Below, piece after piece: positions 30,282 to 56,700 of a stretch of DNA of 64,000 nucleotides. The stretch spans positions 7,390-71,389 of the forward strand of contig CAYSFB010000002.1 of NCBI GenBank assembly GCA_964430735.1, read 5' to 3'. Position 1 is the first letter of the stretch. Every line of letters begins with the position of its first letter. The notes under the pieces are model-generated. The model made no database searches and had not been told where the DNA came from. It saw only the letters and a program-made list of their open reading frames with translations. The stretch comes from an uncultured Planctomycetia bacterium (GTDB lineage Bacteria; Omnitrophota; Gorgyraeia; 2-02-FULL-51-18; JAGOUK01). A program made the position numbers and the translations under genes.

Positions 30282-30376
30282 GATGTTCCTCCTTGAAAAA
30301 GCTTGTAATAAGAAAGCGGAATTATACCCCCGACCCGGTCCGGAGGCAAGTCAAACAAGGGTTTGGCGAAGGTCGG

Positions 30377-33300
30377 CTAGGAAGCGGAGCGGCCCGTCGG
30401 CAGGGTCGACTTGACCCCTCCGGAGGCGTCTTGGAGCTGGATGGACCGGCCGTCCGAGGATAGGCCGATTGTGGAAACACCTTCAACCTCGATCGTCTCT
30501 TCAGCGGTACCGGTTTTGGTGTTGATCTTGGAGACCGTGCCGTCCAGGCGGTTGAAGACAAAGAGGAAGTTGCCGTCCGGAGTTAACACGATGCGGGAGG
30601 GTTGTGAACCCGTCTTAAAGGTATTGACGACATCCCCTGTCGTGGAGCTCACCGCCACAATGGAGTCGCTGATCCCGTCAGCGATGTAAATGACGCCGCT
30701 GGAGCCGTCCATCACCAGGTCGGTGGTGGAATCCGTGATGTGCGATTCGATGAGTTCCACGATAGCAGGATCGAGGCCGGCAAGCTGTGCGGTCACGTAA
30801 GGATCAGCTGCGGGTCCGGAATTTTCATTTCCCCCATCCAAAGAACCGCCCGAACCGGACGAGCCGCCGCCGAATCCGCCGGAATCGCCGGTAGTCTGGA
30901 TCGCGGCCTGCAGCTCGTTGGTGATCGTCTCTTCGGTCACGACCGTCGCCGCCGGCGCTTCAGCTCCAAAGTCCCATCCAAGGTTGTTACCTCCATCCAC
31001 GGCATTTGTCGCCACCGGCTCAAGACCGCCCGTTGCATCGGAATCGGTGATCTCGATCCAATCCACATCGAAGGTGCCGCTGGCAACCAAATCCCAGCGA
31101 GTACCGGGATTCGACGACAGAAGATTCACGCGGTCATCCGCATCGATGCCGTTGATGGTCAGGAGTCCCGTGACGGTGAACGTGGATCCGGCTTCGAACG
31201 TCAGGGATACGTCCGTGCTGTCATCTGCCGCGTCGATCTTGGTGAGATCATAGAACGTGGTGTCCCCCGCCAAGGACTGGTCTCCGCCGTCGAACACCAC
31301 GCTGCCTGCCTGGGCAGTGAAGGTTCCGTTATTCGTCCAGTCTCCGGCGATGTTGATCTGGTAGTTGGAACCCGAAACATCCAGCGTGGAACCTGCGTCG
31401 ATTGTGAGAGTCAAATCAACATCAAGATTGCTCGCCAGAGTCACAGTGCTGTTGTTGGAGATCTGGAGGTTGTAAAAAGTACCGCCGTTCAGGGCGCCGG
31501 AGCCGTCCAGGACCACAAGACCGTTCCGCGCCGTAAAAGTTCCAGCGTTGTTAAAATCACTGCCGACATTCACTTGATAGTCGGATCCCGAAACATCGAG
31601 CGTGGACCCGGCGTCGATCGTGAGGCTCATATCGACGTCCAAGGCGCTGTTCAAGGTCACGGTGCTGTTGTTGGACAGTTGGACATCATAAAACGACTGT
31701 CCGCCCGGAATGAGCGTAGTCGTGCCGTTGAACACCACAAGACTCGTCCCCGCCGTGAACGTGCCGCCCACTTCCCAAAGACCTCCGACCGTGACGGTAT
31801 TAGCTCCGGGCGAGAAGGTTCCGGCGGCAGCGATGAGCATATTAGTTGTCGTGACGTCTCCGCCGGGGGTAAAGGTGCCGCTCATAACCGCAAGGCCATT
31901 GCTCCCCGCCATCGTCAGATCTCCGCCTGAGACCCCGTAGATGGCGGAGATATCCCCGTCCCCATTCGCGTCGGCGGTGTTGAGCGTCGTGTTCGTAGCG
32001 GGGCCTGTCCCGTCCTGACGGATAAGCAGATAGTTCTGGTAGACGTCCAGTCCGGTGTAAGTAGCTGCATCGTTGATCTGGACCGTGACACCCTGCTCAG
32101 CTTCCCCATCGATGTAGATCGTGATGATGTCCCCGTCAACCAGAGCAGTGGAAAGAGTGATCGAGTATGCGCCCGATCCGTCCGTATCGTCCGTCCCGTC
32201 CGCAGCAGCTCCGTTGATCGAGATGGCAATAGTCTTGCCGGCCCCGATATTGGTCACACCGAAGTCAGTAAAGACCGTGCCGGTGATCGTGGGGCCGGAC
32301 ACGAAGTCCCAATTGGTGTTGTTGCCGCTGTCGACGCTGGTACCGTCGGTTGCATCGATCACCGTCGCATGAATGTTATTGGAATCAATGACGTCGACAT
32401 TCGAGATCGTCCTCGTGCCTTGAGGGTCAATCGACCATTGAGTGCCGCCTGAATCGCTCTGGAGGACAAGGTCGGCTACCCCGTCGCCTTGAAGGGTCAA
32501 AGCACCCAAGATCGTCTGAGTGCTGCCGTTGGCAAAGGTGATCGAACCTCCGGAGCCGGTCTTGGTGAGGTTATAGAAGGTGGTGCTGCCGTTGATGGTT
32601 TGATCGTCACCCTGAAAAGTCACGGTCCCTTGCTGGGCGGTAAATGTACCGTTGTTGGTCCAGCTCCCATCGATGAGGATCTGATGATCATCTCCCGAGA
32701 CGTCCAACTCCGATCCTGCGTCAATGGTGAGCAGGTGCGCAACTTCGATCCCGATCCCCAACACCACCGTCGTGTTGTTCGAGATTTGCAGGTCGTAAAA
32801 ACCGCCGCCGAGAATGATAATTGAGGAGCCTCCTCCGTCAAAGATCACTGCGCCCTGCTGAAAACTAAAAGTACCGCCGTTCGACCAATCCCCGCCGACA
32901 TTGATCTGCCAGTCGGCTCCCGAAACATCCAGCGTCGAACCGGAATCGATGGACAGATCATTGCCTACGACCAGCGCCCCGCCTAGCGTTACGGTGGTGT
33001 TATTTGATATCTGGAAGTCGGTGAAGTTGCCTCCCGTGACGGTGGACGTACTACCGCCGTCAAAAACCACCAGCCCTCCCTGCGCGACGAAGGTGCCGGC
33101 GTTGGCAAAGTCCGCGCCGATATTCACCTGATAATTGGAACCCGACACCCCGAGGGTGGATCCCGTATCGATCGTCAGACCACCATCCAGATCCAAAGCG
33201 CCCGTCAAAGTGATCGTGGTGTTGCTCGAAAGCTGAAGGTTGAAAAAGCTTCCTTCCAGTGTGATCGCCTGTCCGCCGTCGAAGACAACAAGACCACTCC

Positions 33301-36300
33301 GGGCGTTGAAAGTGCCGGCGTTCGCGAAATCCCCCGCCACATTGATCTGATAATCCGAGCCGGAGACATCCAACGTCGACCCGGCGTCAATGGTCAGATC
33401 GTTTTGGACGGTGATGGCGCTGCCCAGCGTCAAGACGGCATTATTCGAGACCTGGAGACTGTAGAAGTCGGCCGAAGTGGACGTCCCGGGGCCGTCATAG
33501 ACCACCAGACCGCTCCGGAAAGCAAAGGTTCCGGAATTTGTAAAATCACCGCTGATATTCATCTGATAGTTGGATCCCGAAACATCCAGGGTCGACCCGG
33601 AATCGATGGTCAGTGCGTGAGCGCTCATCGCCCCGCCCAAAGTCATCGTGCTGTTGCCGGAAATCTGGAGATCGTAGAACGAACCGCCCACAACGGTGGC
33701 TGAGCCGGTAAATATCGTCAAACCGGTCTGGCTCGAAAAGGTGCCGCTATTGGTCCAATCCCCGCTGACGCTGATCTGATAGCTCGAACCCGAAACATCC
33801 AGGGTCGATCCCGCGTCGATCGTGAGCGCATGCACCGATATTGCGGCCCCAAGCGTCACCGAGCTGTTATTGGAGATCTGAAGGTCGTAAATACTCAGAC
33901 CCGGGGCCGTTATCGTTTGACCTCCGTCAAACACCAGGAGGCCGCTGCGAGCCGTAAAGGTACCCGACTTGATAAAGTCTCTTCCGATATAGACCTGGTA
34001 ATTCGAACCCGACACATCCAGCGTGGAACCCGCGTCAATAGTCAGATCATTGTCCACATCAAGATTGCTGCCGAGGGTCATGGTGCTGTTGTTGGATATC
34101 TGGAGGTTGTAGAAGGTGCCTCCGGTGATGCCCTCTGAGACGTTGAAGACGACCAGGCCGTTCCGGGGATTAAAAGTGCCGTTGTTGGTAAAACCGCTCG
34201 AGAGGTCCAATTGAAAGTTCGACGCCGACACGTCCAGCGTGGAACCGGCGTCGATATTGATCCCGTGAAGCGTGATGGCAGCCCCCAGGGTCAGGGTCGT
34301 GCTATTGGTCAAATAAAGGTCGTAGACGTTGAAGTCCAGAGATGTGGACTGTCCTCCGTCAAAGTACAGAACTCCCGCCTGCGCATTAAAGGTACCGGCC
34401 TTCGAGAAGCCCCCTCCGACATTGATCTGATAATTGGATCCCGAAACATCCAGCGTCGATCCGGCGTCGATCGTGAGGTCATTATCCACGTCAAAATTGC
34501 TTCCAAGCGTTGCAGTGCTGTTGTTGGAGACCTGGAAATTGTAAAAAGTTCCTCCCGACACTGAGCCGCTTCCGTCCAGCACCACAGAACCGTTCCGCGG
34601 ATTAAAAGTACCGGCATTAATCCAACTGGCCCCGACATTGATCTGATGGTTCGACCCGGAGACGTCCAGTGTGGAACCCGCGTCGATCGTGAGATCATTG
34701 TTGACGTCAAGCGCGCCCCCCAACGTCACCGTGCTGTTGTTGGAAATCTGAAGGGCATAAAAATTACCGCCAGTCACCGTACCGGCTCCGTCCAGAACGA
34801 CCAACCCCGCGTTCGGAATAAAAGTACCGTTATTGATCCAATCAACCCCCACGTTGATCTGATAACTGGCGCCCGAAAGGTCCAGCAATGAGCCGGCGTC
34901 GATCGTCAGCGAACCATCGATGTCCAATGCAGCCGACGGGTTGATCGTGGTGTTGTTGGACAGCTGCAAGTCATAAAAGTTCCCCTGAAGCGCGGTGGTT
35001 TGACCGCCGTCAAAGACGACTGTTGCAATATTGGGAGTAAATGTGCCGGCGTTCGACCAATCCCCTCCAATAGTGATATTAGAACCCCCCGCATTCAAAG
35101 TCGCCCCCGCATCGATCGTGATATCGTTGTCGGCGTCCAAGACACTACCCAAAGTCACCGTGCCGCCACTCGCGATCTGAAAATCATAAAAAGTGCCTCC
35201 GGTGACGGTACTGGTCCCGTCGATCACGACCAGACCGCCCCGCGGGATAAAGGAACCGGAATTGGCGAAGTCTCCGGCAACGTTCAGCTGATAATTGGAT
35301 CCTGAGACATCCAGGGTCGATCCCGCGCCGATGTTGAGAGCGCCGTTCACATCCAAAGGCGCATCCAGCGTGATCGTGGTGTTATTGCTGAGCTCCAGAA
35401 GGTAGAAGTTGCCGTTCAACGCGGTGGACTGGCCGCCGTCAAAGACCACGGCCCCGGTTTGATACGTGAAGGTCCCGCTATTGGACCAGTCGCCTCCAAC
35501 AGCAATGTCATAATTCGACCCCGAAACGTCCAAGGTCGCTGTTCCACCGATCGTGAGATCGTTATCCACGTCCAAGTTGCTGCCCAGGGTCGCCGTGCAG
35601 CCGGCCGAGATCTGAAGGTCATAAAAATTCCCTCCGGCAATGGTGCCCGTGCCGTCAAAGACCACAATTCCCGACCGAGGCACAAAGGTGCCGGAATTGT
35701 CCCAGCCGGTCGCGACGTTGATCTGAAAATTAGACCCGCTCTTGACGTCCACCGTCGCTCCGGCGGCAATGGTGATCGTTCCGTCGGCGTTCAGGGCGCT
35801 CTGGAACTCATACGTCGGACTGCCGCCGCCGTTTTCGAAGCTGATATTTCCATAGGTCGACGCGCCAAAGTTGAGTGTCTTGGTCCCCGAAACGGCGTTG
35901 AAGTGAAGCGTCGGACTCAGATCCGTGTTCAACGTTCCGCCGGAGGCGTCCCAATTCCCGGTGATATACATCGACCATCCGGCGGCGTTCGTGTCGAGAG
36001 TGCCTGTGAGCGTTAAATCGTTGTCCACGTGGAAATCGGCGTCGAGCGTGTAAGACCCCGACACGACAAGGTTATAAAATCCGTTCGCGCCTCCGGAAAA
36101 GCTCCCGGTTCCGGACAACGTGACCGTGCTCGAGTTGGCCGTAAACGTCCCGGCGTTGGTCCAATCCCCCGCCACGTCGACCGAATAATTGCTTCCCGAA
36201 GTGTCCAGCGTAGAACCCGCGTCGATGACGAGGTCGCCGTCCAGATCCAGATTTGCCCCCAACGTCATGGTGGTGTTCCCGGAAAGCCGGAGACTGTAAA

Positions 36301-39300
36301 AAGTGATGCCCGTCGGCAAGGTAAGGGTCTGCCCCCCGTCAAACACGACCAGTCCGTTCTGGGCAGATAAGGTTCCCGAATTCGCCCAAGTTCCACCGAC
36401 ATTGACCTGGTAATGCGAACCCGACACCTCCAGCGTGGAACCCGCGTCAATGGTCAGATCATTGTCCACATCAAGATTGCTGCCGAGGGTCATGGTGCTG
36501 TTGTTGGATATCTGGAGGTTGTAGAAGGTGCCTCCGGTGATGCCCTCTGAGACGTTGAAGACGACCAGGCCGTTCCGGGGATTAAAAGTGCCGTTGTTGG
36601 TAAAACCGCTCGAGAGGTCCAATTGAAAGTTCGACGCCGACACGTCCAGCGTGGAACCGGCGTCGATATTGATCCCGTGAAGCGTGATGGCAGCCCCCAG
36701 GGTCAGGGTCGTGCTATTGGTCAAATAAAGGTCGTAGACGTTGAAGTCCAGAGATGTGGACTGTCCTCCGTCAAAGTACACAACTCCCGCCTGCGCATTA
36801 AACGTACCGGAATTCGAGAAGTCCCCCCCGACATTGATCTGATAATTCGATCCCGAGACGTCCAGCGTCGATCCGGAGTCGATCGTGAGGTCATTGCTGA
36901 CGGTGATGGCGCTACCCAGCGTCAAGGTGGAATTGTTCGAGACCTGGAGGTTGTAGAAGTTGGCTGAAGTGGCCGTCCCGGTGCCATCATAGACCACCAG
37001 GCCGCTTCGGAATGTGAAGGTTCCGGAATTTATAAAGTCGCCGTTGATGTTCATCTGATAGTGGGATGCCGAAACATCCAGGGTCGACCCGGAATCGATG
37101 GTGAGGGTATGAGCCGACATTCCGCTGTTCAACGTCATCGTGGCATTGTTCGAGATCTGCATATCATAAAAAGCACCGCCGGTGATGGCGCCATTGGCAT
37201 CAAAGACGACCAGTCCGGCTTGACACATAAAAGTACCCAGACCATTCCAATCCCCGCCGACATTAACCTGATAATTGGACACCGAAACATCCAGCGTCGA
37301 ACCTGAATCGATCGTAAGGTCACCGTCAACATCAAAAGCGCTGTCCAGCGTGGCCGTGGTGTTATTGGATAATTGGAAATGGTAAAAGTAGTTGCCGCTC
37401 ATTGCGATCGATCCTCCGCCGTCGAAGACGACGAGTCCGTTTCGCTTGGTGAAGGCGCCGGACATGATCCAGGAGCCTCCAACATTAATCTGATAGTTGG
37501 ATCCCGAAACATCCAAAGTGCCGGCGGCAATGTTCATCCCGGCAATATCCAAAGCGGAGCCCAGTGTCCAGGTATTACCGGCAGCATTGACCTCAAAGTC
37601 ATTAAATGCACTTGAGCTGGTGATGGTTCCGCCAGTACCCTGGAAGCTGACGGCGCCGGTTCCGGCGGTAAAGGTTCCTCCGGTCTGATTCCAGCTGCTC
37701 CCCCCCACTATGATATTAAAGGTCGACGCATTCAGCGTCCCGTTCGCGATGGACATATTGCCCACCGTGATACCAACCCCCAGCGTGATCGTTCCCGTAT
37801 ATCCCGAAGCGATTGTGAAGTTGCCTCCCGACCACGTCCCCACGTTGTCGATCGTGATGTTGCCGGTGTACGTTCCATTAAAGAGGACTGCGTCTTGGTT
37901 ATCCGGAAGCGTGTCTCCGTCCCAGTTATTCGCATCCGACCAATTGGTTCCATCCCCACCCCCGTCAAAGGTCGGGTCGAAGAGGACGTTGGAGTTGTTG
38001 CTGCCGTTCACACCATGTTCAATAAAGAGGTAGTGGATGAGGTTCATATCCCGGGCATTGATTCGGTTCAAGTTAAGGCGTGATGCATAGGCGGAAGGGT
38101 CGCCAAAGTCCAGGAAGTATTGGGTGCCGGGGTTAGAAGACCTGAACTTGATGTGCTGTTCCCCGCCCTGGGCCTGGGGAAGGTCGGGGGCGCCGAGGAT
38201 GGTGACGTTATTAAGGAAGGTGTAGGTCTGACCTGCTTCCCAGGTCACTTCAAGGTCAGGAACGGTCAACGTGAAGTTGTAAAACGACCGGGAACCGTCG
38301 ATTGTTATGTTGGACTGAATATCCACTGAGTCATAAGACCCGGGGACAAAGCCGCCTGACCAGTTCAGGGGATCGGAATAGAGCGTGGAGGATGAGCCGT
38401 CAAATACGAGGGCTTGGAACAAGAGACCGGAGTTGTTCTGGAGATTCATCGAGTGGAGAAGTTCCAAGCTCGGCGGACCGTTGGAATCGAAGTACACCGT
38501 GTCTTGGACTGCCGTATAGATAAAGTTGTGATTTGAGACTTGTCCAATCATCCAGGGAACGCCCGCCTGGGTGGACCTTACGCTCAAGAGATGGCCATAG
38601 GAACCTTGAAGCGAGAGGGTTCCAGTGAAGCTCTGGCTAGCGCCTGATTCGAACTCGACCGTCTTCTCAGGGGCTATCACATAGAAGTCATGGAAGGCAT
38701 TGGATCCGAGGATATGGGAATCTTCCGATCCTTCAAGCTCGACTCTTGAGTCGCCTGACAGGAAGCTTCCCCCATTCACCCAGTCTCTTTGAAGAGTAAA
38801 AAGAACTGAATAGTCAGGGTTAGCGATAGGGTCTTGGGTGGCGGGGGCCTGAAGGGTTGCACCCTGACCTATGATGAGGGAGTCGACTGTGATGTTTGAA
38901 CCCTCGACTACCCTATATAAGGCACCCTGGCCGCTTAAGGTCAGGTTGCCGGTCACGTTCATGCTCTTGAGATCTGAAGTTTGAGTGGTATGAAGCGTGA
39001 TGTTGCCTTCGACATTAAGGTTGTCGGTGACCTGGACGGAGTTGGCTTCAACGGTCACTTCATCCGCCTTAAGGGTTCCTTCCAGCCGGGCTTCATCCGC
39101 AACGATCTCGATCACGCCGTCACGCTCAACCACATGCGTCGCTTCGATGACCCCGGTGTTGTTTACGACCCCTTCAAAGATGTTGTCCAGAGCTTTGGCG
39201 GTAAGGACCACTTTGTTGGAACGAATGGTTCCGTCGTTCTTGACGTTGGGGTTGGATGAGTACTGTTGAACGAGAGCTTGATCGATCGATACGCTCACCA

Positions 39301-39916
39301 ACCCTTCGCTGTCAAAAGAGAGGGTTGCTTTTTCGCAAGCGGCGATCTCGACGGTTCCGAGTTGGGCTTCGATCAAACCGGTGTTTAAGATTTCTTGGGA
39401 AAGAAGGACCACGTTCTTGGCGGAGATGTGTCCGGCATTGTGGATGAAGGAGGCGCCGGATTCGTTTTCGAACACGAATTGATTGGATGCAAAAAGGGCG
39501 TTTGAGATGTCCAAAGTTGAGACTGCCAAAGACCCGGCTGAGATATTGGCGTTCTGTCCGATATTAAAACCATTTGCATTCACCAAAAAGATCTGACCAT
39601 TCGCGTTCAGAGTTCCGAAGATCTCGGAGACTGAGCCGCCGGTGACGCGGGACAGAAGGGTGGATGCTTCGGAAGCTTGGATGAAGTTGACGGTCTGGTT
39701 TTCTGCAATCGAGAAGGAGTCGAAGTTGATGATGGCGCCGTCTGAGGCGGTGATGGTTAAAAGATCCGGAGTTGAGTCATCAACTGTTACCGAACCATTC
39801 TCGACCGTCCAGCCGGATGGAAGTGCGTAAGCTGAAGCAGAACCCAATAAGCATAGCCCTCCCAGGAGTCCCAGGAGAGAGATGCGGCCTATGAGGGTGT
39901 TCTGCAAGCGTTTCAT
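30377..39916 (-). CDS. Two-partner-secretion exoprotein (TpsA; filamentous-haemagglutinin-like beta-helix adhesin, 3,179 aa)
   Basis: A signal peptide (MKRLQNTLIGRISLLGLLGGLCLLGSASAYA) is followed by a TPS/haemagglutination-activity-like domain (NFIQASEASTLLSRVTGGSVSEIFGTLNANGQIFLVNANGFNIG). Then come about 30 tandem ~70-aa beta-helix repeats of the type GSTLDVSGSNYQINVGGDWSNSGTF...FYDLQISNNST. A TpsB gene is adjacent. Confidence 0.8.
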   Translation of the reverse strand: MKRLQNTLIGRISLLGLLGGLCLLGSASAYALPSGWTVENGSVTVDDSTPDLLTITASDGAIINFDSFSIAENQTVNFIQASEASTLLSRVTGGSVSEIFGTLNANGQIFLVNANGFNIGQNANISAGSLAVSTLDISNALFASNQFVFENESGASFIHNAGHISAKNVVLLSQEILNTGLIEAQLGTVEIAACEKATLSFDSEGLVSVSIDQALVQQYSSNPNVKNDGTIRSNKVVLTAKALDNIFEGVVNNTGVIEATHVVERDGVIEIVADEARLEGTLKADEVTVEANSVQVTDNLNVEGNITLHTTQTSDLKSMNVTGNLTLSGQGALYRVVEGSNITVDSLIIGQGATLQAPATQDPIANPDYSVLFTLQRDWVNGGSFLSGDSRVELEGSEDSHILGSNAFHDFYVIAPEKTVEFESGASQSFTGTLSLQGSYGHLLSVRSTQAGVPWMIGQVSNHNFIYTAVQDTVYFDSNGPPSLELLHSMNLQNNSGLLFQALVFDGSSSTLYSDPLNWSGGFVPGSYDSVDIQSNITIDGSRSFYNFTLTVPDLEVTWEAGQTYTFLNNVTILGAPDLPQAQGGEQHIKFRSSNPGTQYFLDFGDPSAYASRLNLNRINARDMNLIHYLFIEHGVNGSNNSNVLFDPTFDGGGDGTNWSDANNWDGDTLPDNQDAVLFNGTYTGNITIDNVGTWSGGNFTIASGYTGTITLGVGITVGNMSIANGTLNASTFNIIVGGSSWNQTGGTFTAGTGAVSFQGTGGTITSSSAFNDFEVNAAGNTWTLGSALDIAGMNIAAGTLDVSGSNYQINVGGSWIMSGAFTKRNGLVVFDGGGSIAMSGNYFYHFQLSNNTTATLDSAFDVDGDLTIDSGSTLDVSVSNYQVNVGGDWNGLGTFMCQAGLVVFDANGAITGGAFYDMQISNNATMTLNSGMSAHTLTIDSGSTLDVSASHYQMNINGDFINSGTFTFRSGLVVYDGTGTATSANFYNLQVSNNSTLTLGSAITVSNDLTIDSGSTLDVSGSNYQINVGGDFSNSGTFNAQAGVVYFDGGQSTSLDFNVYDLYLTNSTTLTLGAAITLHGINIDAGSTLDVSASNFQLDLSSGFTNNGTFNPRNGLVVFNVSEGITGGTFYNLQISNNSTMTLGSNLDVDNDLTIDAGSTLEVSGSHYQVNVGGTWANSGTLSAQNGLVVFDGGQTLTLPTGITFYSLRLSGNTTMTLGANLDLDGDLVIDAGSTLDTSGSNYSVDVAGDWTNAGTFTANSSTVTLSGTGSFSGGANGFYNLVVSGSYTLDADFHVDNDLTLTGTLDTNAAGWSMYITGNWDASGGTLNTDLSPTLHFNAVSGTKTLNFGASTYGNISFENGGGSPTYEFQSALNADGTITIAAGATVDVKSGSNFQINVATGWDNSGTFVPRSGIVVFDGTGTIAGGNFYDLQISAGCTATLGSNLDVDNDLTIGGTATLDVSGSNYDIAVGGDWSNSGTFTYQTGAVVFDGGQSTALNGNFYLLELSNNTTITLDAPLDVNGALNIGAGSTLDVSGSNYQLNVAGDFANSGSFIPRGGLVVIDGTSTVTGGTFYDFQIASGGTVTLGSVLDADNDITIDAGATLNAGGSNITIGGDWSNAGTFTPNIATVVFDGGQTTALQGNFYDLQLSNNTTINPSAALDIDGSLTIDAGSLLDLSGASYQINVGVDWINNGTFIPNAGLVVLDGAGTVTGGNFYALQISNNSTVTLGGALDVNNDLTIDAGSTLDVSGSNHQINVGASWINAGTFNPRNGSVVLDGSGSVSGGTFYNFQVSNNSTATLGSNFDVDNDLTIDAGSTLDVSGSNYQINVGGGFSKAGTFNAQAGVLYFDGGQSTSLDFNVYDLYLTNSTTLTLGAAITLHGINIDAGSTLDVSASNFQLDLSSGFTNNGTFNPRNGLVVFNVSEGITGGTFYNLQISNNSTMTLGSNLDVDNDLTIDAGSTLDVSGSNYQVYIGRDFIKSGTFTARSGLLVFDGGQTITAPGLSIYDLQISNNSSVTLGAAISVHALTIDAGSTLDVSGSSYQISVSGDWTNSGTFSSQTGLTIFTGSATVVGGSFYDLQISGNSTMTLGGAMSAHALTIDSGSTLDVSGSNYQMNISGDFTNSGTFAFRSGLVVYDGPGTSTSADFYSLQVSNNAVLTLGSAITVQNDLTIDAGSTLDVSGSDYQINVAGDFANAGTFNARSGLVVFDGGQAITLEGSFFNLQLSSNTTITLTGALDLDGGLTIDTGSTLGVSGSNYQVNIGADFANAGTFVAQGGLVVFDGGSTSTVTGGNFTDFQISNNTTVTLGGALVVGNDLSIDSGSTLDVSGADWQINVGGDWSNGGTFSFQQGAVIFDGGGSSIIILGGGFYDLQISNNTTVVLGIGIEVAHLLTIDAGSELDVSGDDHQILIDGSWTNNGTFTAQQGTVTFQGDDQTINGSTTFYNLTKTGSGGSITFANGSTQTILGALTLQGDGVADLVLQSDSGGTQWSIDPQGTRTISNVDVIDSNNIHATVIDATDGTSVDSGNNTNWDFVSGPTITGTVFTDFGVTNIGAGKTIAISINGAAADGTDDTDGSGAYSITLSTALVDGDIITIYIDGEAEQGVTVQINDAATYTGLDVYQNYLLIRQDGTGPATNTTLNTADANGDGDISAIYGVSGGDLTMAGSNGLAVMSGTFTPGGDVTTTNMLIAAAGTFSPGANTVTVGGLWEVGGTFTAGTSLVVFNGTTTLIPGGQSFYDVQLSNNSTVTLNSALDVDMSLTIDAGSTLDVSGSDYQVNVGSDFNNAGTFTARNGLVVLDGSGALNGGTFYNLQISNNSTVTLASNLDVDLTLTIDAGSTLDVSGSNYQINIAGDWTNNGTFTAQAGSVVFDGGDQSLAGDTTFYDLTKIDAADDSTDVSLTFEAGSTFTVTGLLTINGIDADDRVNLLSSNPGTRWDLVASGTFDVDWIEITDSDATGGLEPVATNAVDGGNNLGWDFGAEAPAATVVTEETITNELQAAIQTTGDSGGFGGGSSGSGGSLDGGNENSGPAADPYVTAQLAGLDPAIVELIESHITDSTTDLVMDGSSGVIYIADGISDSIVAVSSTTGDVVNTFKTGSQPSRIVLTPDGNFLFVFNRLDGTVSKINTKTGTAEETIEVEGVSTIGLSSDGRSIQLQDASGGVKSTLPTGRSAS
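39000..39830 (-). other. Domain: TPS (haemagglutination activity) secretion domain of TpsA
   Basis: The N-terminal ~280 aa after the signal peptide carry the NxxNG(F/I) and LLSRVTGG-type motifs of TpsA secretion domains. Confidence 0.6.
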
Positions 39917-40061
39917 ATAATTGTCTAATATTAGATAACATTGTATGGTTACAGACCTATTTTGGCAAGTTTATTTATTTTATTTATATGGTTGTCAATT
40001 TTGAATTGGAATACACCAATGGAGAGGGCAATAAGAGGCGGGAGATCTTTTTTGTGGTGGG

Positions 40062-41375
40062 CTAAATGCTGGCGAGGCCGATGAGGTCGGCGGCGGTGAG
40101 GGTGCCGACGATCTTGCCGTGCTTGTTCACGATGATGATGATTTCGCTTTTGGACTCCTTGAACTTGCGGACGGCAGCGGCGAGCTGTTCCCCATCCTCA
40201 AGGACGACGAAGTTTTTCTTCGCGACTTCACGGATGGGCTGGTCCCATTCTTGAAGCGCGATCTCGGGGACTGACAGCGCGTCCAGACGACGCACGTTCA
40301 TGAGGCGGCGCTTGATATAGGTATACAACTGGGCATTCGGGATCTGCTTGTACCCTACCGGGATCGGCGGGACCGGCTGACCTTGAGCGAAGGCCAGATG
40401 CGATTCAAACGCGCTCATCTTGAATTGATTGGCCGTCGTCAAAAGATACCGGAGCGAGCTGTCCGGCACGAGCTCCTCTTCCGCTTCCGGGATCGAGGCC
40501 AGGAAACACATCTCGTACGCGTCGTCCATCGTCAGCTTGAGTTCTTTGTATCCGCGGCCGATGAAGTATGCGAGCTCCTGGTCCTGATCCTTGAACTCCG
40601 TCGAATATTTTTCGAGCGTGTCGATCGCGTCCGCCAGGAACATGCCCAGGGCGACGTCGATGTTGTATAGGATCCCCGCCATCACGATCGCCGCGTCATC
40701 CGACTGGCCCGGCCCGACCCGGTGCCGGATATAGAAGTAACGGATGAGGTCGCCCATGTCCGGGTCGTACTCCTCCATGATGAGCCCGACGCGCTTGAAC
40801 TCCTCAATCTCATGTTCATGCGGGTCATGCGCCAGATGCTCGCCGTCCAGCCCCATGCTCGTCATCACATTCGCGTTGACGAAGTACAACTTGCCGCCGC
40901 CGATCTTGATCTGGTAGCGGGCTTCCGTTTCTTTGCGGACGTCGATGTTGTCGCGCAGGCCGCCCAAAAAAATTCCGCGCAGAATGTCGCGCGCGTTCAC
41001 GCGCCGGTCACGGAACAGTTCGATCCCGAGAAACGGCTCGCCGCGGTGATTGACCAGCCGGTCGAGCTTTTCGCCGTGCATCGTGGTCTTCACGAAATCG
41101 ATGATGTCGTTGATCAGACCCTGGCGGTATTGCTTGGTTTTGACCGGGTCGCGCTTGAGCGCCCGGACGATGTCGTCGATATTGGTGTTGACGTAGGCGC
41201 GTTTGTTGAAGACTCCGGCGCCGTTATGCGCCCGACCTTCGATGGATTGGACGAAGATCATATCAGCGACGTCGTTGGAAGCGATCAATTGTTCGTGGGA
41301 ACGGATGAGCTCGAAGTCCTTTCGGATGAGCTCCGCGGGGGCGATGTCTTTCCTAAAATCCCGGGGTGTGTCCAT
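40062..41375 (-). CDS. Hypothetical protein with C-terminal CBS domain
   Basis: 437-aa ORF with an ATG at 41375. The C-terminal ~60 aa form a CBS motif (VVLEDGEQLAAAVRKFKESKSEIIIIVNKHGKIVGTLTAADLIG). I recognise no family for the N-terminal 370 aa. GC is lower than the window average. Confidence 0.5.
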   Translation of the reverse strand: MDTPRDFRKDIAPAELIRKDFELIRSHEQLIASNDVADMIFVQSIEGRAHNGAGVFNKRAYVNTNIDDIVRALKRDPVKTKQYRQGLINDIIDFVKTTMHGEKLDRLVNHRGEPFLGIELFRDRRVNARDILRGIFLGGLRDNIDVRKETEARYQIKIGGGKLYFVNANVMTSMGLDGEHLAHDPHEHEIEEFKRVGLIMEEYDPDMGDLIRYFYIRHRVGPGQSDDAAIVMAGILYNIDVALGMFLADAIDTLEKYSTEFKDQDQELAYFIGRGYKELKLTMDDAYEMCFLASIPEAEEELVPDSSLRYLLTTANQFKMSAFESHLAFAQGQPVPPIPVGYKQIPNAQLYTYIKRRLMNVRRLDALSVPEIALQEWDQPIREVAKKNFVVLEDGEQLAAAVRKFKESKSEIIIIVNKHGKIVGTLTAADLIGLASI

Positions 41376-41465
41376 GCTTGAACCAAGTATACACTAGTAA
41401 TACACGGTTAATCAAAAACTCATAATTACAAACAATTCAATAAGTATTGAACCAGCTCCGACAAT

Positions 41466-43235
41466 GTGCCAAAATGCTTCATGCACTCAAACCGCAGGTT
41501 CGCTATTGCAGCCTTTTTAACGGCTTTTCATGTCCTATTGCTCACCCGGGGTACGGATTCCGTCGCCTTAGCCGCAGATAACGACCCTTCCCTCGCAGAC
41601 GCCGTTCAACAACAGACCAGCCAGGCCGAAGAATTCCGCCGTCAAACGGAGGCCCGCGAAGCTGAACCTCCCGCCCAAAGCCCTTTAGCGCCGGCTGAAG
41701 CCGAGTCGGAAAAGGCAACGGGGCCCGACGCCGGTCCCCGCTTCCAGGTCAGCAAGATCCTTTTTGAGGGAAATACGGTCTTCCCTTCTTCCGACTTCGA
41801 CCCTTACGTCAAGATACATGAAGGTGAGACGGTCAGTCTCGAGGACCTCAAACTCGCCGCCAAGGCGGTCACACTCCATTACCGCGCCCGCGGATACCTG
41901 ACCAGCCGCGCTTACATCAAACCCCAGAAGATCGTGAACGGCGTCGTCACGATCCAGGTGCTCGAAGGCCGGTTGGACAAAACGGTCGTTGAAGGCAACC
42001 GGTATTTTTCGACCAAATTTTTTGAAGAAGCGGCGGCCATGCCCAAGGACAAGCCGTTCCGGTACTCGGAACTCGAGCGCCGCCTGCGCTTCGTGAACCG
42101 GAACCCCGACTTCCATATCGCCGCGGTCCTCGCCCCCGGTCAGACGCCGGAGACGTCCGACCTGCACCTCAAGATCGACGACGGCCTGCCGATGCACGCG
42201 TATTACGAGTTCAACAACCGCGGCTCCAAACTCACCCACCGGTCGCGTCACATGGTCACCGGCGTTCACAATAATTTCCTCGGCAAGGCGGATTCCCTGT
42301 CGGTCACCGGCTCTATCGCCGAAGAAGATGCGTTCCGCGCGCTGTCGGCGTCGTGGTCGCTGCCGATGTGGCAGACCGGCACAACCTTCATGATGTCGGG
42401 CAGCTACGTCGACAGCAGGCTCGTCAAACACCTCAAACCCCTGGACATCGAGGGCCTTTACACCAGCGTCACGCCGGCCATCTCGCAGGAACTCGTCATC
42501 ACGCAGAAGGACCAGCTGTCCTGGTACGCCGGCCTTGAGATCAAGGATTCCAAGTCCACGATCAGCGACACCAAGACCAGTCTCGACCGGATGCGCGTCC
42601 TGGTCACCGGCCCGCGCTGGACGCATCTGGGCGGCGGCGGACGGACCAGCCTTTCGGGCGATGTGCATTGGGGTATTCCGGGTCTCCTGGGCGGATCTGA
42701 AGCGGAGGATCTCAACGCTTCGCGGAACGGTTCGGGCGGGGATTTTATTTATTACACCGGTTCCGCTTCTCGGATCCAGCGCCTGCCGCTGGGACTCACA
42801 GGCGTGCTGCGCGGCGAAGGCCAATGGACCGACGACACCCTGACGGCGGTCGAACTGATGCGTCTCGGGGGTTACTCCGGTGTGCGCGGCTATCCGGAAT
42901 CAGACTCGCAAGGCGACTACGGGTTCATGGGAACGATGGAGCTGGTCGCCCCGACCCCCCTGCCCGACAGCATCAAGTTCCCTTTTACGAAGGACCCCTT
43001 CAGCAAGTCGGTTGATTGGCTCGTGTTCTTTGACGGGGGAAAAGTTTTTGCCCAGGAACGCGGCGCCCGGACCGACGTCAAGGATCGGATGTTATTGGGC
43101 ATCGGCGGCGGTCTTCGCGTTCACTTGAAGCAGAATATTTCCGCCCAGCTCGATTACGGCTGGCCCGTCGGCGACGACTCCACCGATACGGACAACCAAC
43201 CCCAAGCCCACTTCTCGATCCGAGTCGGTCTCTAA
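41466..43235 (+). CDS. Two-partner-secretion outer-membrane transporter TpsB (ShlB/FhaC/HecB family)
   Basis: A POTRA region (PRFQVSKILFEGNTVFPSSDF..., VTLHYRARGYLTSRAYIKPQKIVNGVVTIQVLEGRLDKTVVEGNRYF) is followed by a C-terminal beta-barrel. The ORF track begins at GTG 41466. An in-frame ATG at 41481 gives a clean signal peptide (MHSNRRFAIAAFLTAFHVLLLTRGTDSVALA). Confidence 0.8.
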   Translation: MPKCFMHSNRRFAIAAFLTAFHVLLLTRGTDSVALAADNDPSLADAVQQQTSQAEEFRRQTEAREAEPPAQSPLAPAEAESEKATGPDAGPRFQVSKILFEGNTVFPSSDFDPYVKIHEGETVSLEDLKLAAKAVTLHYRARGYLTSRAYIKPQKIVNGVVTIQVLEGRLDKTVVEGNRYFSTKFFEEAAAMPKDKPFRYSELERRLRFVNRNPDFHIAAVLAPGQTPETSDLHLKIDDGLPMHAYYEFNNRGSKLTHRSRHMVTGVHNNFLGKADSLSVTGSIAEEDAFRALSASWSLPMWQTGTTFMMSGSYVDSRLVKHLKPLDIEGLYTSVTPAISQELVITQKDQLSWYAGLEIKDSKSTISDTKTSLDRMRVLVTGPRWTHLGGGGRTSLSGDVHWGIPGLLGGSEAEDLNASRNGSGGDFIYYTGSASRIQRLPLGLTGVLRGEGQWTDDTLTAVELMRLGGYSGVRGYPESDSQGDYGFMGTMELVAPTPLPDSIKFPFTKDPFSKSVDWLVFFDGGKVFAQERGARTDVKDRMLLGIGGGLRVHLKQNISAQLDYGWPVGDDSTDTDNQPQAHFSIRVGL

Positions 43236-50795: not shown

Positions 50796-53700
50796 TTATG
50801 CTGAGATCGCCGCCAACCGGATAGCCGTCAGGATTTGCTGAAAAACCTCCCAGGCCCGGCGCATCGGCCGGAGCTTATGGAGGTTCAAAACCTCCCGCTC
50901 GGCCGCTTCCTGAGGAACCCGCTGGACCTTGGCTAGAATTGCGACCGGCAGTTCGACACCAAAAAGCGTGCTCAGTACCGACGTGCAGATCGGGTCCGCG
51001 GCCAAGGAGGCGGCGCCCCCTTCCCAGCGCGCCAGCCGCGCGCCTGCCAGAACCGCCCTGATCACGTCCGGGTTCGGATCCGATACAAATCCCACGGCGC
51101 CAGGCTTAAGATCTGCAGCATTCAAGGCGATGACCGCTTCGGAATAATCGGCCGCATCCGGAGCCGGAACCCGGCCCGTGAAGTTCTCGACCTGGCTCAG
51201 TTCCAAATAAATCCCCCGAACTGCCAGCCGAGCCGCAGCCGCAGCCAGCACCTCGCTCTGCTCGAACCTCCTGGCCGGATCAATCGCGAGGACGCCGCGC
51301 TCCAGCCGGACCAATACCCGGCGCTCCGAACCGGCCTCGGCCCCCTTCAACAGATCTGACAACTGCGACAGAGCCCGTTCGCCTTCCGCTTCTGAAGCAT
51401 ACGCCAGGGCGCCGGCGACCGGCTTCCATCCCGACAATCCAAAGAACTGCATGAAAGAATCCGGCCAGCCCGCCAGCCGCGCGCCGCTCTTGCTTTCCTG
51501 CAATGCGCGCAAGTCCAGGATGGCTTTTTGAACTGGCTTGACCGCGCTGGGCCTAAAACGGTGAATCCAGTTCTTGATGCTCTTGTCGCTCCGATCGCCG
51601 AAACGGGCGTCGTGCTTTTGGAGCTCCTGCAGAAGCCTGTCAAAATCCTCCGGATGCGCATCGGGATCCATCAAAACACGGTCCAATGATGCCGACAGGT
51701 GCGGGTTGGCCAGCGCAGCCGCTTCAACCGTGAAGAGAAGCCCCAACCTCCATGCGTTGGGCATCCTGTTGCTTGGGGCGTTCCGGAGCATGCCCTCCTG
51801 TTCGGTCAGAATTTGGATCAGCCGGTCCGCACGATCGGCGAACCACTCATAGCCGGGTTTCCACGCATCTTTCCGGTCCTTGTAATACTGGCGGTCTTCC
51901 AGCCAGATCAATCTGCCCCGAAGCAGTCCGGCCGGCTGAACAGCGGCCAGGAATCGGCCGATGGCTTGGTGCAAACGCCCGCGCAAAGCAGGATTGTTCG
52001 TTTGCGCTTCAAGCGCCCGGCGCAGCGACGGCATGTACATGTGGATGTCAAAAAAATCCCGCTTGTGGTTCAGGTGCGCTGCCCCGAAAAGCAGATCGGT
52101 CGCCACCGCCTCAAGTCCGGCGTCGCCCGGAAGCAGGACGAGATTGCGCGAAAGCCGCTGATACCCTTCAATCAGGCGCTTATCATTAGCATCCACGAAG
52201 TAGGAGAGATTCAAGACCAGAAGGAGCGGCAAGGAAAGAGGGCCCGCCGATTCGTACCATCTTCCGCTTTGAACATCCGAATTATACCGATCGACCAATC
52301 GTCCAACGGCGGCCATCTCCTCCGGGTCGGCGCTGCCTCCTCGCTCAAGCAAGTACATCGCCGAGGTCATCAATAGCCGCACGGCGTCCGTCGATCCGTC
52401 CCGCGCGGACTTCAGCTTCAAGCGATCCAGATTGAGCAGCAGCAGCTGCCGGCCTTCGTCCGACAGGACGGATTCCAGAAGATTGGATGCACGGGCGCTG
52501 GCCTCTGATCTCCAGTCATAATCCGGGTCTGCGGCGGAGACTGCTGCTCGAATCAATTCAGCGCGGACATCCACGATCCCGGCGCCTGCCTGACCTTGAT
52601 TCGCCAGCCGCGCGCCCTCCAAGGGGGACTCCGCAGGCCGTTCCGCCGTGAGGACGCGCAGAAACTCGCGGTTCTTCGCTTCGGCACCGGCAAACGGATC
52701 CCGCTGGTCTACTTGAAAGCCGGAATGCTGATAGCGGGTCCGGTTCTGCTGCATGGCGATGCGATGAGCCCATTCATCAACAAAACCCGGATCCGTCGTG
52801 TATCCGCCGTGAATAACGCGGCGAACTTGCGGGTGGTTGGAGGCGATGCGGGAGATCGCGGCATCCGGATGATCATCCGGCCGTTGGTCCAATCGGTCGA
52901 TTGGTCCATAAATCTGCCAGGGCCCCATGTCGGCGACGATGCCGGTCAGGGGCGCCCCGATCACATGCATCGCTGTCTCGAGCTTGCCGTCAAATTCTTC
53001 CGCCGTCACGTCGCCGGGAAGCTCCAAATAATCCGGATTCACCCCGCGACCCGGGGCGTTCCAGGACTCTTTCCAAAGATAGGCGCGCGAGACCTCAAGC
53101 CCCCTCTCCTCCTTTTCGACCAGCACGGCCTTGCGGTTCATACGCATCAGGATGCGCGACAGGACGGCGTCTTCGCCTGATCCGACATCCAGCCACCATC
53201 CCTCCGGCAGCCGGCCCTGACGCCAATCGTCCAGCAGTTGACCGATCATCACCGCGGTGAACATGCTCATGGACATGCCCGGATACTTTTTCATTTCCAT
53301 CGCGGCGAAAGAGGACGGATGAATCAGCAGGATGTTGCCGGAGTGCTTTTCATACACGTCTCCAAGCAAGCGGATCAAGCGGTCCATTTCGCGGCGCACC
53401 GCCAGCGAGTCCCGGCCATTGCCCGAGAAGCCTTCGGTGAGATTGACAAAAATCAGCGGTCCGACACGAATCACATGCGCGTACGGGGCCAGATGGGAAT
53501 GCCCCGGAACCCGGAACCCCTCTCGGCTCAAGACGATCGGAACCGTCCGTCCCGGTCCGAACGTCATGACATGTACGGGCTCGAATTGCGATTCCGGATC
53601 CCCATAATCAGGAACGATTTTTTTCAGAACCTCGCGGGCCAGTCGGTCGGCTTCCGCTTCAGTAAGATCGTGCAGCGGCGCTGCTGGGACAACCCTCATC

Positions 53701-56700
53701 GGCGCAACGTCAGTCGCGCGGCGCTTGAGCCAGTCCGGAAGGATCCGCTTCCACCCGCTCTGCGCCAGCCGCGCGCCGGACCGAGCTGCAGGGCTCAGTT
53801 GATAGACGCTCGGTGATTCAGATCGCCCGGGCCGGCCGCCCATCAGCGTCGGGTCCAACGCGAGGGATGGGTCAAAATAGACCGAGCGGGCATGCGGCAT
53901 CCATAACCGATGCCACTCATTGAGCTCCCGGACACGCTGGTCAAAGATCGGCTTCACTTCCCCGGCGATCTGCGCAATGGCGTAGAGCGATTGATGAGCG
54001 ACGGCCCGCAGCTGCGCCGAGCTGCTGTTCAGCAGCACGAATGCCCATTCAGCAAGATCCGCGATCGATTCCGCGGCGTCCGGATCCCCCGGCTCCGAGG
54101 ACTCAAGCTCCACACGCATTTCCTCAAGCACCTGCAGCATCGCTTTGAGCTCCGCCCGACGCTTCACTTCCTTAATAGCCCGAACCAGCGGAAGGGCCGT
54201 GACCGCAAACATCGGGTGAAGCCAAACCGAGGCCGCAAGAACCGGCATCGCGAATCCCGCAATCAGGAACGCGGGGCCGCTGACCCGGTCCGCTTCCGGA
54301 TGACTCCGACGAAAGGCTGTGATCAAACGCGGCAGAATCTGCCGAGCTACTTCAACCGGCTGAACCGCTGCAACCATTTCGGGTGTGATCTCGACCTTCG
54401 CCGCATGCGGGGCCTCTTTGCCCAGCCGGCGGAAAAGCCGCTCCCGTTCGATCTCCGAGTCCCTTAACAGCTGCTCAAACCCTTCCGACCCACCCGTTCC
54501 CGCCAACCGCGCGCCGGCCGCAAAATCGACCGGAAGATCGATCTCGAGGCGCGTGCCCCAAGAAGGGTCTGAATCGATCTGCAGGAGACCGCGATGCTCG
54601 GCGATCGTCTCAACCGCCGTCGGCATTCCGATACCTCTGCCGCCAAAATAAACGCCCTGCTCGGACCGGTCCCTGGAATAAGCGAATTTGAATATGTCCG
54701 GAATGTCTTCGGGTTTCATTCCCACGCCGTTGTCCTCGATCGTCACCCGGACATGCTGCGTCTCCGCCATAAATTGAGCTTTGACCAGGATCCGGGACCG
54801 GCTCCGGTAACTGAAGTAGCTTCTTCCTTCCCGGACGATCGAAGCGAACACCGCATTGCGGATCAATTCGCGAAAAGCGTTCAACAGACGCACACGGTCG
54901 CCCGTCATCGACGGCAGGCCGTTTTCGAAGTCGGTCTCGATCTCCACCGGCCTATGATGCTCCGGATGACGACCGCGCTCGCGCTCAATCGCTTCCTCCA
55001 GCAGCCGGCCCGCGTCGATCGACGGATCAATAATTCCCGAGTAACTGCCGCTGGTGTCCTTGAGCAGGATTTCCAAATGCTCCGACAGCCTCCACATCCA
55101 TCGGCGCAGAGCAGAAATCTGCACCAGAACGGACTGCACCTCGTCGGACGCGAGCAATTCCGGCTGAAGCTGGATTTGCCTGAGCGGTTGGTCATAAATG
55201 CTGGTGTTGGAAAAATCCTTGAGAAAACCCGAGACAGACTTCAGAGACGCTTCAGATCGGACGTCCTCCTTGACTTCGAGACCCGCGCGCATCCGCTCGA
55301 TCGCTTCGGAATTCCGGACGGCGTGGTCGCTGCCCGCGAGACGATCCAGCCCGCGTAGAAGCTCAAGGTAGTCCGAAAGACCTGACCGGGTCTGGGTCAC
55401 AACGAACTTCGCATACTCCGCAATCCCCCGTTCCGGGTCAGCCGCAATCGTTTCCCGCAAACGGACAAAATAATTGAGGCCCTGAGCCAGCCGCGCGCCA
55501 ACGGCCGGCATTCTCCGGATCAGGGCGAGGTTCTTGGTTTTTTCGATCACGAATAAGCCGTACGCGCCGCTCTCGACGATGCGGTAGGGGTTCCTCAAAC
55601 CGCTTACTTCCCCTTGATAGGAAAAAGCGTCGTCGTACAGAATCAGCCGATGATTGTATCCATAACTGCGGATCTCGCTCTTGAGCTTCAGCTCCGGATC
55701 AAACACCAAGACCCGGTTGCTGTGCTCGTCTCCGACCAGAATAAGGCCGTTGGGGTCCACATTGATCGCGGTCACGCTGTTCATCAATGATAATAACCGC
55801 GTCTTTTTAAGCTCCGGATCATAAATGGCGATCCGTCCCCCGCCGCCGGTGATCCAATTGCCTTCGCGATCCGCCGCAATGACGTCGATCGGCAGGTCGG
55901 CCTGCATCTGATGGAGCTTGCGGCCGGTGACGATATCATAAATCGCCATCGAATGATCGGCCGAATCCGAGTTCGAAGTTCTGACGGCCAAACGACCCTC
56001 GTCGTTCAGCGCCCAAACCGGAACCGTCTGGATTCCGCCCAAAAACGGATTTGATATTCTTTGGATCAAATCGAGATCAGGGCCATAAACCAGAACGTCT
56101 CCGGACGCAACGTCGGCCAGGACGATCCTGTTCCCGGGGTCCGATTCGATGGAAGGATGGAATCTACCGATGATCCCGCCTGTCTTGCGCAGCGCAGCAT
56201 CGTACGCCGTCAGGCCTCCGACGCTCACCGTCCAAATCCGTCCGTCGGTTCCGGCGGTAACCGCCTCGGGCGATTCCTCCGCCCGGATCTCGCGTAGAAC
56301 CCTAAGGTCCGATCCCAGCACCTTGATCGTTCCGTCCCGCCAGGACTTCCGGATCAGCCTTCCGGCCGGGTCGGATATGAGTTCGTCGGACCGGTATCCG
56401 TCGGGGGCCTTGAGCCACCGCTCCTTCACCGCTCCATACGCGCTGCTGCTCCGCAAAGCCTGCAATAAAGACTCGGTCAGATCGACAAGATGCTTGAGCG
56501 ACGTGTCCGAACGGGTTGCTGAAGGAACTTCGAGTCGGTCGCCCTGCCATTCGGTCTGGAACTTTTTGAGGAATTGCCTCAATACAGGCCGCAGCGGCTC
56601 CGGATCCGTTCCGATTCCCGTCAACGCGTAAAAAATCCCGTACCCGTTCATGAGAATATTTTCGATCTGCGCCCGGGTGAGGCCGTTGATGAAGCCCGCA

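Follow-up and report, generated by a model that had tools for sequence, protein, structure and literature searches.

A probable recent in-register gene conversion tract within an old beta-helix repeat array of an Omnitrophota tpsA gene

We analyzed a 64,000-nucleotide (nt) stretch of contig CAYSFB010000002.1 (GenBank assembly GCA_964430735.1) from an uncultured bacterium of the Omnitrophota, focusing on tpsA, a gene for a two-partner secretion (TPS) exoprotein, and on a long direct repeat within it. The whole 64-kb stretch is referred to as the window, and all positions are given in its coordinates (Table 1). The deduced protein of 3179 amino acids (aa) begins with a putative signal peptide and the TPS domain, continues with three arrays of ~72-aa beta-helix units and with four inter-array modules of ~95 aa, and ends in a Gly/Ser linker and a weakly YVTN-like C-terminus. 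The putative Sec signal peptide, read by eye, is MKRLQNTLIGRISLLGLLGGLCLLGSASAYA/LP, with a basic n-region, a hydrophobic core and an AxA site. The TPS domain at aa 32-274 matched Pfam PF05860 with 87.7 bits (cutoff 33.5; E = 1.6e-24), and TIGR01901 matched TpsA with 60.7 bits (cutoff 29.1; E = 9.8e-17). Neither NPNG nor NPNL was found in the TPS domain; the equivalent positions, aa 104 and 113, carry NANG. Because the TPS profiles still score well over their cutoffs, we read the missing NPNG/NPNL as divergence of the motif, not as exclusion from the TPS class.

The gene for the Omp85-type transporter, tpsB, lies 1.5 kb from the tpsA start in divergent orientation with a CBS-domain gene between them, unlike the typical tpsB-tpsA operon. 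TpsB carries POTRA_2 and ShlB barrel domains (PF03865, 85.2 bits, 7e-24; PF08479, 75.6 bits, 3e-21), and is 30% identical over its full length to the TpsB beside a distant Omnitrophota TpsA (locus L001). The downstream neighbor of tpsA is GAPDH. An earlier annotation made from the letters of the window (hereafter, the sequence-only reading) had called the open reading frame (ORF) tpsA, and PF05860, TIGR01901 and the nearby TpsB with its POTRA_2 and ShlB domains bear this out; judged by these profiles, the ORF is a genuine TpsA. The passenger was elongated with a right-handed beta-helix fold in the predicted structure. Of the term "beta-helix adhesin" used in the sequence-only reading, the beta-helix is again predicted, while "adhesin" extrapolates from fold and secretion route only.

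Table 1. Coordinates of tpsA, its repeats and the neighboring genes in the window.
Feature	Position	Strand	Basis
tpsA, two-partner-secretion exoprotein, 3179 aa (9.5 kb)	30377..39916	-	uninterrupted ORF and TPS domain
TPS (secretion) domain, aa 32-274	39095..39823	-	PF05860 and TIGR01901
Array 1, ~72-aa units, aa 779-1279	36080..37582	-	unit HMM
Array 2, ~72-aa units, aa 1368-2445, 15 units	32582..35815	-	unit HMM
Array 3, two units, aa 2742-2886	31259..31693	-	unit HMM
Exact 328-nt core, copy A, N-proximal in protein	36453..36780	-	exact-repeat comparison
Exact 328-nt core, copy B, C-proximal in protein	34041..34368	-	exact-repeat comparison
Recent tract, copy A, 497 nt; units u987 (3' part), u1060, u1131 (5' part); encodes aa 1047-1162	36403..36899	-	
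Recent tract, copy B, 497 nt; u1791 from column ~60, whole u1864, u1935 to column ~123; encodes aa 1851-1966	33991..34487	-	
Older tract, copy A', u916/u987; abuts and overlaps recent copy A	36823..37111	-	
Older tract, copy B', u2080/u2151	33331..33619	-	
CBS-domain ORF, 437 aa, between tpsB and tpsA	40062..41375	-	conserved housekeeping synteny; present in relatives without tpsA
tpsB, Omp85-type transporter, POTRA_2 and ShlB barrel	41466..43235	+	Pfam

A hidden Markov model (HMM) of the repeat unit identified ~24 strong copies of ~72 aa (216 nt) in the three arrays of TpsA. In a codon alignment of 22 well-defined units, the mean pairwise nucleotide identity was 59.6% (standard deviation 5.9), and the identities at codon positions 1, 2 and 3 were 64, 71 and 42%, respectively. 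The array is judged to be old because its third, synonymous positions are near saturation. The longest exact direct repeat in tpsA pairs plus-strand positions 34041-34368 with 36453-36780, all 328 nt being identical. The two copies are offset by 2412 nt, which equals 804 codons (3 x 804), and both lie in the same frame of the minus-strand ORF. The probability of 328 consecutive matches is ~1e-41 even if each base matched with p = 0.75; the identity far exceeds chance, and the repeat is real and highly non-random. Exact direct repeats of at least 20 nt in tpsA were all in frame (11 of 11), because the units sit in register; the next-longest after the 328-nt repeat is 34 nt. No exact repeat of at least 25 nt was found outside tpsA across the rest of the window.

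The sequence-only reading had described a direct repeat of ~330 nt whose copies lie 2.4 kb apart in tpsA, which agrees with the exact 328 nt and the offset of 2412 nt measured here. It had further counted a second, separate duplication of ~115 aa. A 116-aa block, YFDGGQ...DAGSTL, does occur verbatim twice, at aa 1047-1162 and aa 1851-1966, but its coding DNA (36431-36778 and 34019-34366) is the minus strand of the 328-nt repeat, so that there is one duplication and not two. As for the identical antisense peptides it had listed at 34211.. and 36623.., both ORFs exist and have the N-terminal part in common. These antisense ORFs were rejected as genes, since the repeat by itself trivially gives rise to them.

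The exact core is embedded in an extended tract of 497 nt with 18 mismatches (96.4% identity), and the mismatches were unevenly spread: 0 of 328 positions in the core, 4 of 50 on one side and 13 of 118 on the other. Beyond the tract, the ungapped identity at the same offset was only 35-64%. Among the units, five pairs were outliers, namely u1060 and u1864 (100%), u987 and u1791 (84%), u1131 and u1935 (79%), u916 and u2080 (80%), and u987 and u2151 (75%), and sliding windows resolved them into two tracts. The recent tract of ~0.5 kb, equivalent to ~2.3 units, extends from column ~60 of unit n through all of unit n+1 to column ~123 of unit n+2. Within the unit, conservation peaks at columns 60-123, which encode DLTIDAGSTLDVSGS, and the background DNA identity is also greatest there (mean 65-75%, maximum 97%). 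Neighboring pairs at the same offset (u916/u1719 and u1206/u2009) showed background identity in every sub-window. The older tract of 289 nt (84.4% identity, offset 3492 nt) is in frame, likewise starts from column ~60, and contains the 34-nt exact repeat, 33577-33610 = 37069-37102. In addition, u987 is a mosaic, the first 60 nt of which are u2151-like (83-90%) and the remainder u1791-like (87-100%). This mosaic unit and the second tract suggest repeated exchange events. By its unit identities, the recent tract is the lone recent outlier in an old, diverged array.

We consider that the recent tract probably arose by short-tract, in-register intragenic gene conversion in the old beta-helix array of an accessory TpsA. 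Specifically, one position of ~0.5 kb (~2.3 units) would have been overwritten with sequence from a position 804 codons away. The recombination partners would be two non-adjacent positions of an ancient, diverged 216-nt array, and the exchange would most simply be non-reciprocal. The junctions would fall in the DLTIDAGSTLDVSGS segment, where paralogous units share enough identity for pairing. The tract is short and its flanks are at background identity, indicating that it is not a multi-unit block duplication. The pattern fits short-tract conversion and does not fit recent tandem expansion or large block duplication.

A related alternative is that the repeat is the remnant of a tandem segmental duplication of ~11 units (2.4 kb), which has diverged everywhere except for a tract kept by selection. 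The best gapped self-alignment of tpsA does lie at offset 2412, covering 1266 nt with 76% identity, as such a remnant would predict; however, when the 497-nt tract is taken out, its identity falls to ~63%, which is the array background for any two units. The background identity of u916/u1719 and u1206/u2009 in every sub-window also argues against it, and selection at the protein level cannot hold synonymous sites perfectly identical. The segmental-duplication remnant thus seems largely refuted, and we regard it as extremely unlikely. A diversity-generating retroelement was also considered and rejected: the 18 tract mismatches, and a further one just beyond the tract edge at 33988, include each of the four bases in either copy and are not A-specific. 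No reverse transcriptase domain was found among the neighboring ORFs scanned.

Gene conversion of this kind would leave the gene with a pair of long perfect repeats. A perfect repeat of 328 nt is far over the minimal length for RecA-dependent recombination. The core would be a competent substrate for homologous recombination, by which 804 codons could be lost or doubled in frame. Since both copies share a frame, an exchange between them would leave the protein intact, and the products would be 2375 or 3983 aa long, with the length of the shaft changed and the register of the solenoid kept. The sequence-only reading had regarded the repeats as substrates for expansion and contraction; its claim holds in so far as the repeats are in frame and the predicted products intact, but the copy is short and non-tandem, and the array does not appear to be recently expanding.

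To place the repeat among related proteins, the unit profile was searched against 1.84 billion proteins, which gave 4689 representative proteins at E <= 1e-3 and 251 at E <= 1e-30. Many of the unit-bearing proteins are 2000-7600 aa in length (up to 7651 aa), with up to ~50 units, and some carry a type IX secretion system (T9SS) sorting domain or Laminin_G_3, indicating that the 72-aa unit is not TPS-specific. The unit consensus is FYxLQISNNxTxTLGSALDVDxDLTIDAGSTLDVSGSNYQINVGGDWxNxGTF...GLVVFDG, for which there is no Pfam or NCBIfam model, and we propose the unit (proteins P0135-P0282) as a candidate for a new repeat-family definition. Among the 149 best family members, the longest exact internal peptide repeat had a median of 12 aa; exact internal duplications of at least 30 aa were present in 28 of the 149, and those of at least 100 aa in 5 (589, 229, 224 and 195 aa, and the 116 aa of TpsA). 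For most of these duplications, the offset ranged from hundreds of residues to over 1000. Duplications that are long, exact and dispersed thus recur in a minority of the family, and the case of TpsA is ordinary in its class.

TpsA itself was also sought in sequence collections. The identical protein (P0134) was recorded once, at NCBI on one 293,361-nt contig, and was a singleton at 90% clustering in a collection of 15 billion; the exact product was not found in the gene-position index. A search of 5.8 billion proteins with the N-terminal 700 aa of TpsA returned no ortholog, the best match being 44% identical over 35% of the query in the TPS region only, with match lengths to ~1200 aa. The same query against 185,579 species-representative genomes found only two Omnitrophota TpsA proteins (L001 and L002) at 31-34% identity; the passenger of the L001 protein is different, and the unit matches of the L002 protein are weak. 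When aa 987-1279 were used against the protein database, the matches reached at most 63% identity and no fragments of the same gene were found. In JGI metagenomes, a 51-nt exact core pattern gave 0 matches, and a scan with the unit alignment gave 0 confirmed ones. There is no close TpsA ortholog in the collections searched.

The surrounding genes, on the other hand, are conserved in relatives. Named relatives of the PGK beside tpsA were exclusively Omnitrophica/Omnitrophota, the nearest being 92% (ENA contig, L023) and 89% (JGI L024, and L025 from GCA_018061225.1) identical. All three loci keep the fmt-(tpsB)-CBS-GAPDH-PGK-TIM-SecG block with 76-91% DNA identity and lack tpsA, as examined by comparing window positions 30282-40061 with 8790-8944 of L023, 8617-8833 of L024 and 3929-4145 of L025. 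A tblastn search with TpsA gave no match in the three loci. L024 and L025 retain a tpsB ortholog of 54% identity as an orphan, and ~190 nt separate CBS from GAPDH there; L023 lacks tpsB as well as tpsA. In the nearest relatives, with PGK identities of 92% and 89%, CBS leads directly into GAPDH. The tpsA gene is a 9.7-kb presence/absence difference inside a conserved housekeeping block. In addition, the 3' end of the CBS gene differs at the presence/absence boundary, and a promoter-like block of GAPDH, TTGACTTGCC...GGGGTATAATTCC, is conserved and lies ~15 nt past the tpsA stop codon.

Independent assemblies were compared with the window. Logan contigs L019-L022 (SRR14271365, SRR14271372 and SRR14271373) were 100% identical to it over all 32.3 kb aligned. 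Their ends all fall inside tpsA, at window positions 33606, 33118, 30560 and 38249, and the 328-nt core is not spanned by any of them. At 33606, the contig stops exactly where 31-mers turn non-unique in the 34-nt repeat, supporting the reality of the older repeat pair and indicating that repeats here fragment short-read assemblies. The warning in the sequence-only reading that such repeats can collapse in assemblies is supported in so far as independent contigs of the same organism break inside tpsA.

These data bear on the possibility that the repeat is an assembly artefact, in which copies ~90% alike were homogenized, the core plus its 2.1-kb interval was iterated a wrong number of times, or a heterogeneous population was merged. 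The k = 31 short-read assemblies of the same organism break inside tpsA, one of them exactly at 33577-33610; the share of mismatches rises sharply from 0/328 to about 10%; and only one recorded contig encodes the protein. However, the core has four distinct unique flanks and a unique 2.1-kb interval, and the only linear path through them crosses the core at least twice, so that two copies are the minimum for the assembled sequence. The ORF is open over 9.5 kb with an offset divisible by 3, the window agrees fully with independent contigs wherever they overlap, and comparably long exact internal duplications are present in 5 of the 149 unrelated family members, from different assemblies. Taken together, an artefact is unlikely, although the true copy number may be higher, the population may be mixed, or copies a few percent apart may have been made uniform in the consensus.

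Several observations nevertheless weigh against gene conversion as we propose it. A single assembly is the source of both the copy number and the mismatch-free core, and the independent Logan contigs ending at 33606 and 33118 stop before the tract. Homogenization of the consensus by an assembler or polisher could also give the contrast between core and flanks. If the contrast is genuine, 0/328 mismatches in the core versus 17/168 in the flanks requires either patchy repair or two events, one nested in the other. Conversion and length variation were not seen directly, no ortholog from a related strain was found, and the direction of transfer is not readable from the two copies.

A further question is whether such exchange is selected. 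In one alternative, the array would serve as a library of donor cassettes in a contingency mechanism, and frequent conversion, deletion and duplication would be selected because they alter the adhesin in surface or in length as hosts or prey change, as in cagY of H. pylori. In its favor, a mosaic unit and no fewer than two independent tracts are present, every direct repeat is in frame, long internal duplications recur in the repeat family, tpsA is accessory with its presence differing among close relatives, and cagY provides a precedent (PMC2194252). However, two tracts in ~24 units, the remainder being divergent to saturation level, argue for rare and not frequent exchange, and in-frame offsets are automatic for units in register. 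Moreover, no variants were observed in the one assembly, and no dedicated recombinase, reverse transcriptase or invertase is encoded nearby, where the neighbors are housekeeping genes. We therefore regard a selected contingency mechanism as distinctly unlikely. A still bolder form, in which the degenerate 72-aa array is a self-contained cassette library yielding mosaic and length variants by recurrent conversion and by deletion or duplication, the 328-nt pair is an "armed" switch, and the presence/absence of tpsA reflects the same arms race, is very unlikely in our view. If it were true, an ultra-small, host- or prey-dependent Omnitrophota cell could retune its attachment.

Other parts of TpsA were also characterized. 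No Pfam or NCBIfam repeat family, including FHA-type haemagglutinin repeats, was found in the passenger, the TPS domain being the only domain matched. The ~95-aa module is present four times and brackets the 72-aa arrays, at aa ~405-500, 543-645, 2446-2540 and 2887-2985 (window ~38417-38704, 37982-38290, 32297-32581 and 30962-31258, respectively). Its pattern, FYNLTK...TF.AG.T.T....L.L.G......L.S...G..W......G.......V.DS.......GNN.NWDF, has no family assignment, and a resembling module is also present in the distant TpsA of L001. After the Gly/Ser-rich linker, aa ~3045-3158 (30443-30784) showed sub-threshold similarity to YVTN/YncE beta-propellers (Pfam YNCE, E = 0.0017; TIGR02276, 26.6 bits versus a cutoff of 27.85), which is an unusual ending for a TpsA. 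A CdiA toxin was rejected, given that VENN, VDNN, ELYN and LYVN motifs and toxin or PT-VENN Pfam matches are absent and that the downstream gene is GAPDH, not an immunity gene.

The base composition and promoters of the locus were examined as well. The GC content at third codon positions (GC3) was 68% in tpsA, 80-88% in its housekeeping neighbors and 70-72% in the other giant genes. A horizontal origin of tpsA from GC alone was rejected, because its GC3 resembles that of the other giant genes and is not diagnostic. The intergenic regions flanking the CBS gene, 39917-40061 and 41376-41465, have 32% GC versus 60% in the genome. A sigma-70-like site, TTGCCA-17-TACAAT, is located at 39968..39940 on the minus strand, just upstream of the tpsA ATG. 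Note that promoter-like sites were no commoner than in shuffled sequence.

The window contains giant ORFs of 3179 (tpsA), 3866 and 4896 aa. The 4896-aa ORF (6794-21484, minus strand) has alpha/beta-hydrolase, GH77 4-alpha-glucanotransferase and GDPD domains, and the 3866-aa ORF (50796-62396, minus strand) has GNAT and HATPase_c domains; both match giant proteins with several enzyme domains that have been reported from Omnitrophota. The relative L024 has a 5187-aa gene where the 4896-aa ORF lies here. ARAGORN called a 79-nt tRNA-Asn(GTT) at 23923-24001 (minus strand), inside the ABC-transporter permease ORF 23208-24044; this call is probably a false positive, as Rfam is empty there. An Rfam scan gave no match in the rest of the window either.

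We take the tpsA tract as a common mark of recombination inside a repetitive gene; events of this kind are known, and no new kind of element is involved. Its practical consequence is that short-read assemblies will break or mis-count units in tpsA, so that the gene length is not trustworthy without long reads. The tract also suggests that repeat arrays in the large surface proteins of Omnitrophota, although mostly ancient, are still exchanging sequence internally, and an in-frame deletion or duplication of 804 codons offers a concrete site for asking whether a secreted beta-helix protein varies in length in these uncultured bacteria. The side results, namely a repeat family without a Pfam model and a presence/absence difference of tpsA that leaves an orphan tpsB, may outweigh the repeat itself in usefulness.

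Among known systems, H. pylori cagY offers a close parallel, since recombination between its intragenic direct repeats keeps the frame in every case and size variants were shown within hosts (Aras et al. 2003, PMC2194252). Like tpsA, cagY is a large surface-protein gene with many direct repeats, between which all predicted recombination events are in frame and deletion or duplication would alter the protein size (PMC2194252). However, cagY variants are tied to immune evasion, whereas the tpsA array is mostly old, has one long perfect pair and is known from one assembly; furthermore, cagY encodes a component of a type IV secretion system, whereas tpsA encodes a TpsA of free-living or epibiotic Omnitrophota. 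In comparison with the TpsA adhesins FHA/FhaB, HMW1 and EtpA (reviewed in PMC5422565; EtpA structure in PMC10284417), the unit here is not FHA-type, NANG takes the place of NPNG, tpsB is divergent with a CBS gene between, and the C-terminus is weakly YVTN-like, not a toxin or prodomain. The type Va passengers UpaB, pertactin, Ag43 and Vag8 differ in secretion route (Va versus Vb here) and are 11-13% identical, their Foldseek matches being not significant.

Another related setting is that of the long proteins of Omnitrophota, whose repeat architectures are reported in a 2026 preprint to be mostly ancient, with nucleotide tandems largely dissolved (10.64898/2026.06.07.730766). The terms TPS, hemagglutinin and two-partner-secretion have 0 occurrences in the texts of that study and of West-Roberts et al. 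2023 (10.1101/2023.11.21.568195). With several multi-kiloresidue ORFs and old repeats, the locus resembles the tandem-repeat scaffold class described in these works. However, tpsA differs from that class in carrying one recent 0.5-kb tract, a small exception to the rule of "no recent expansion".

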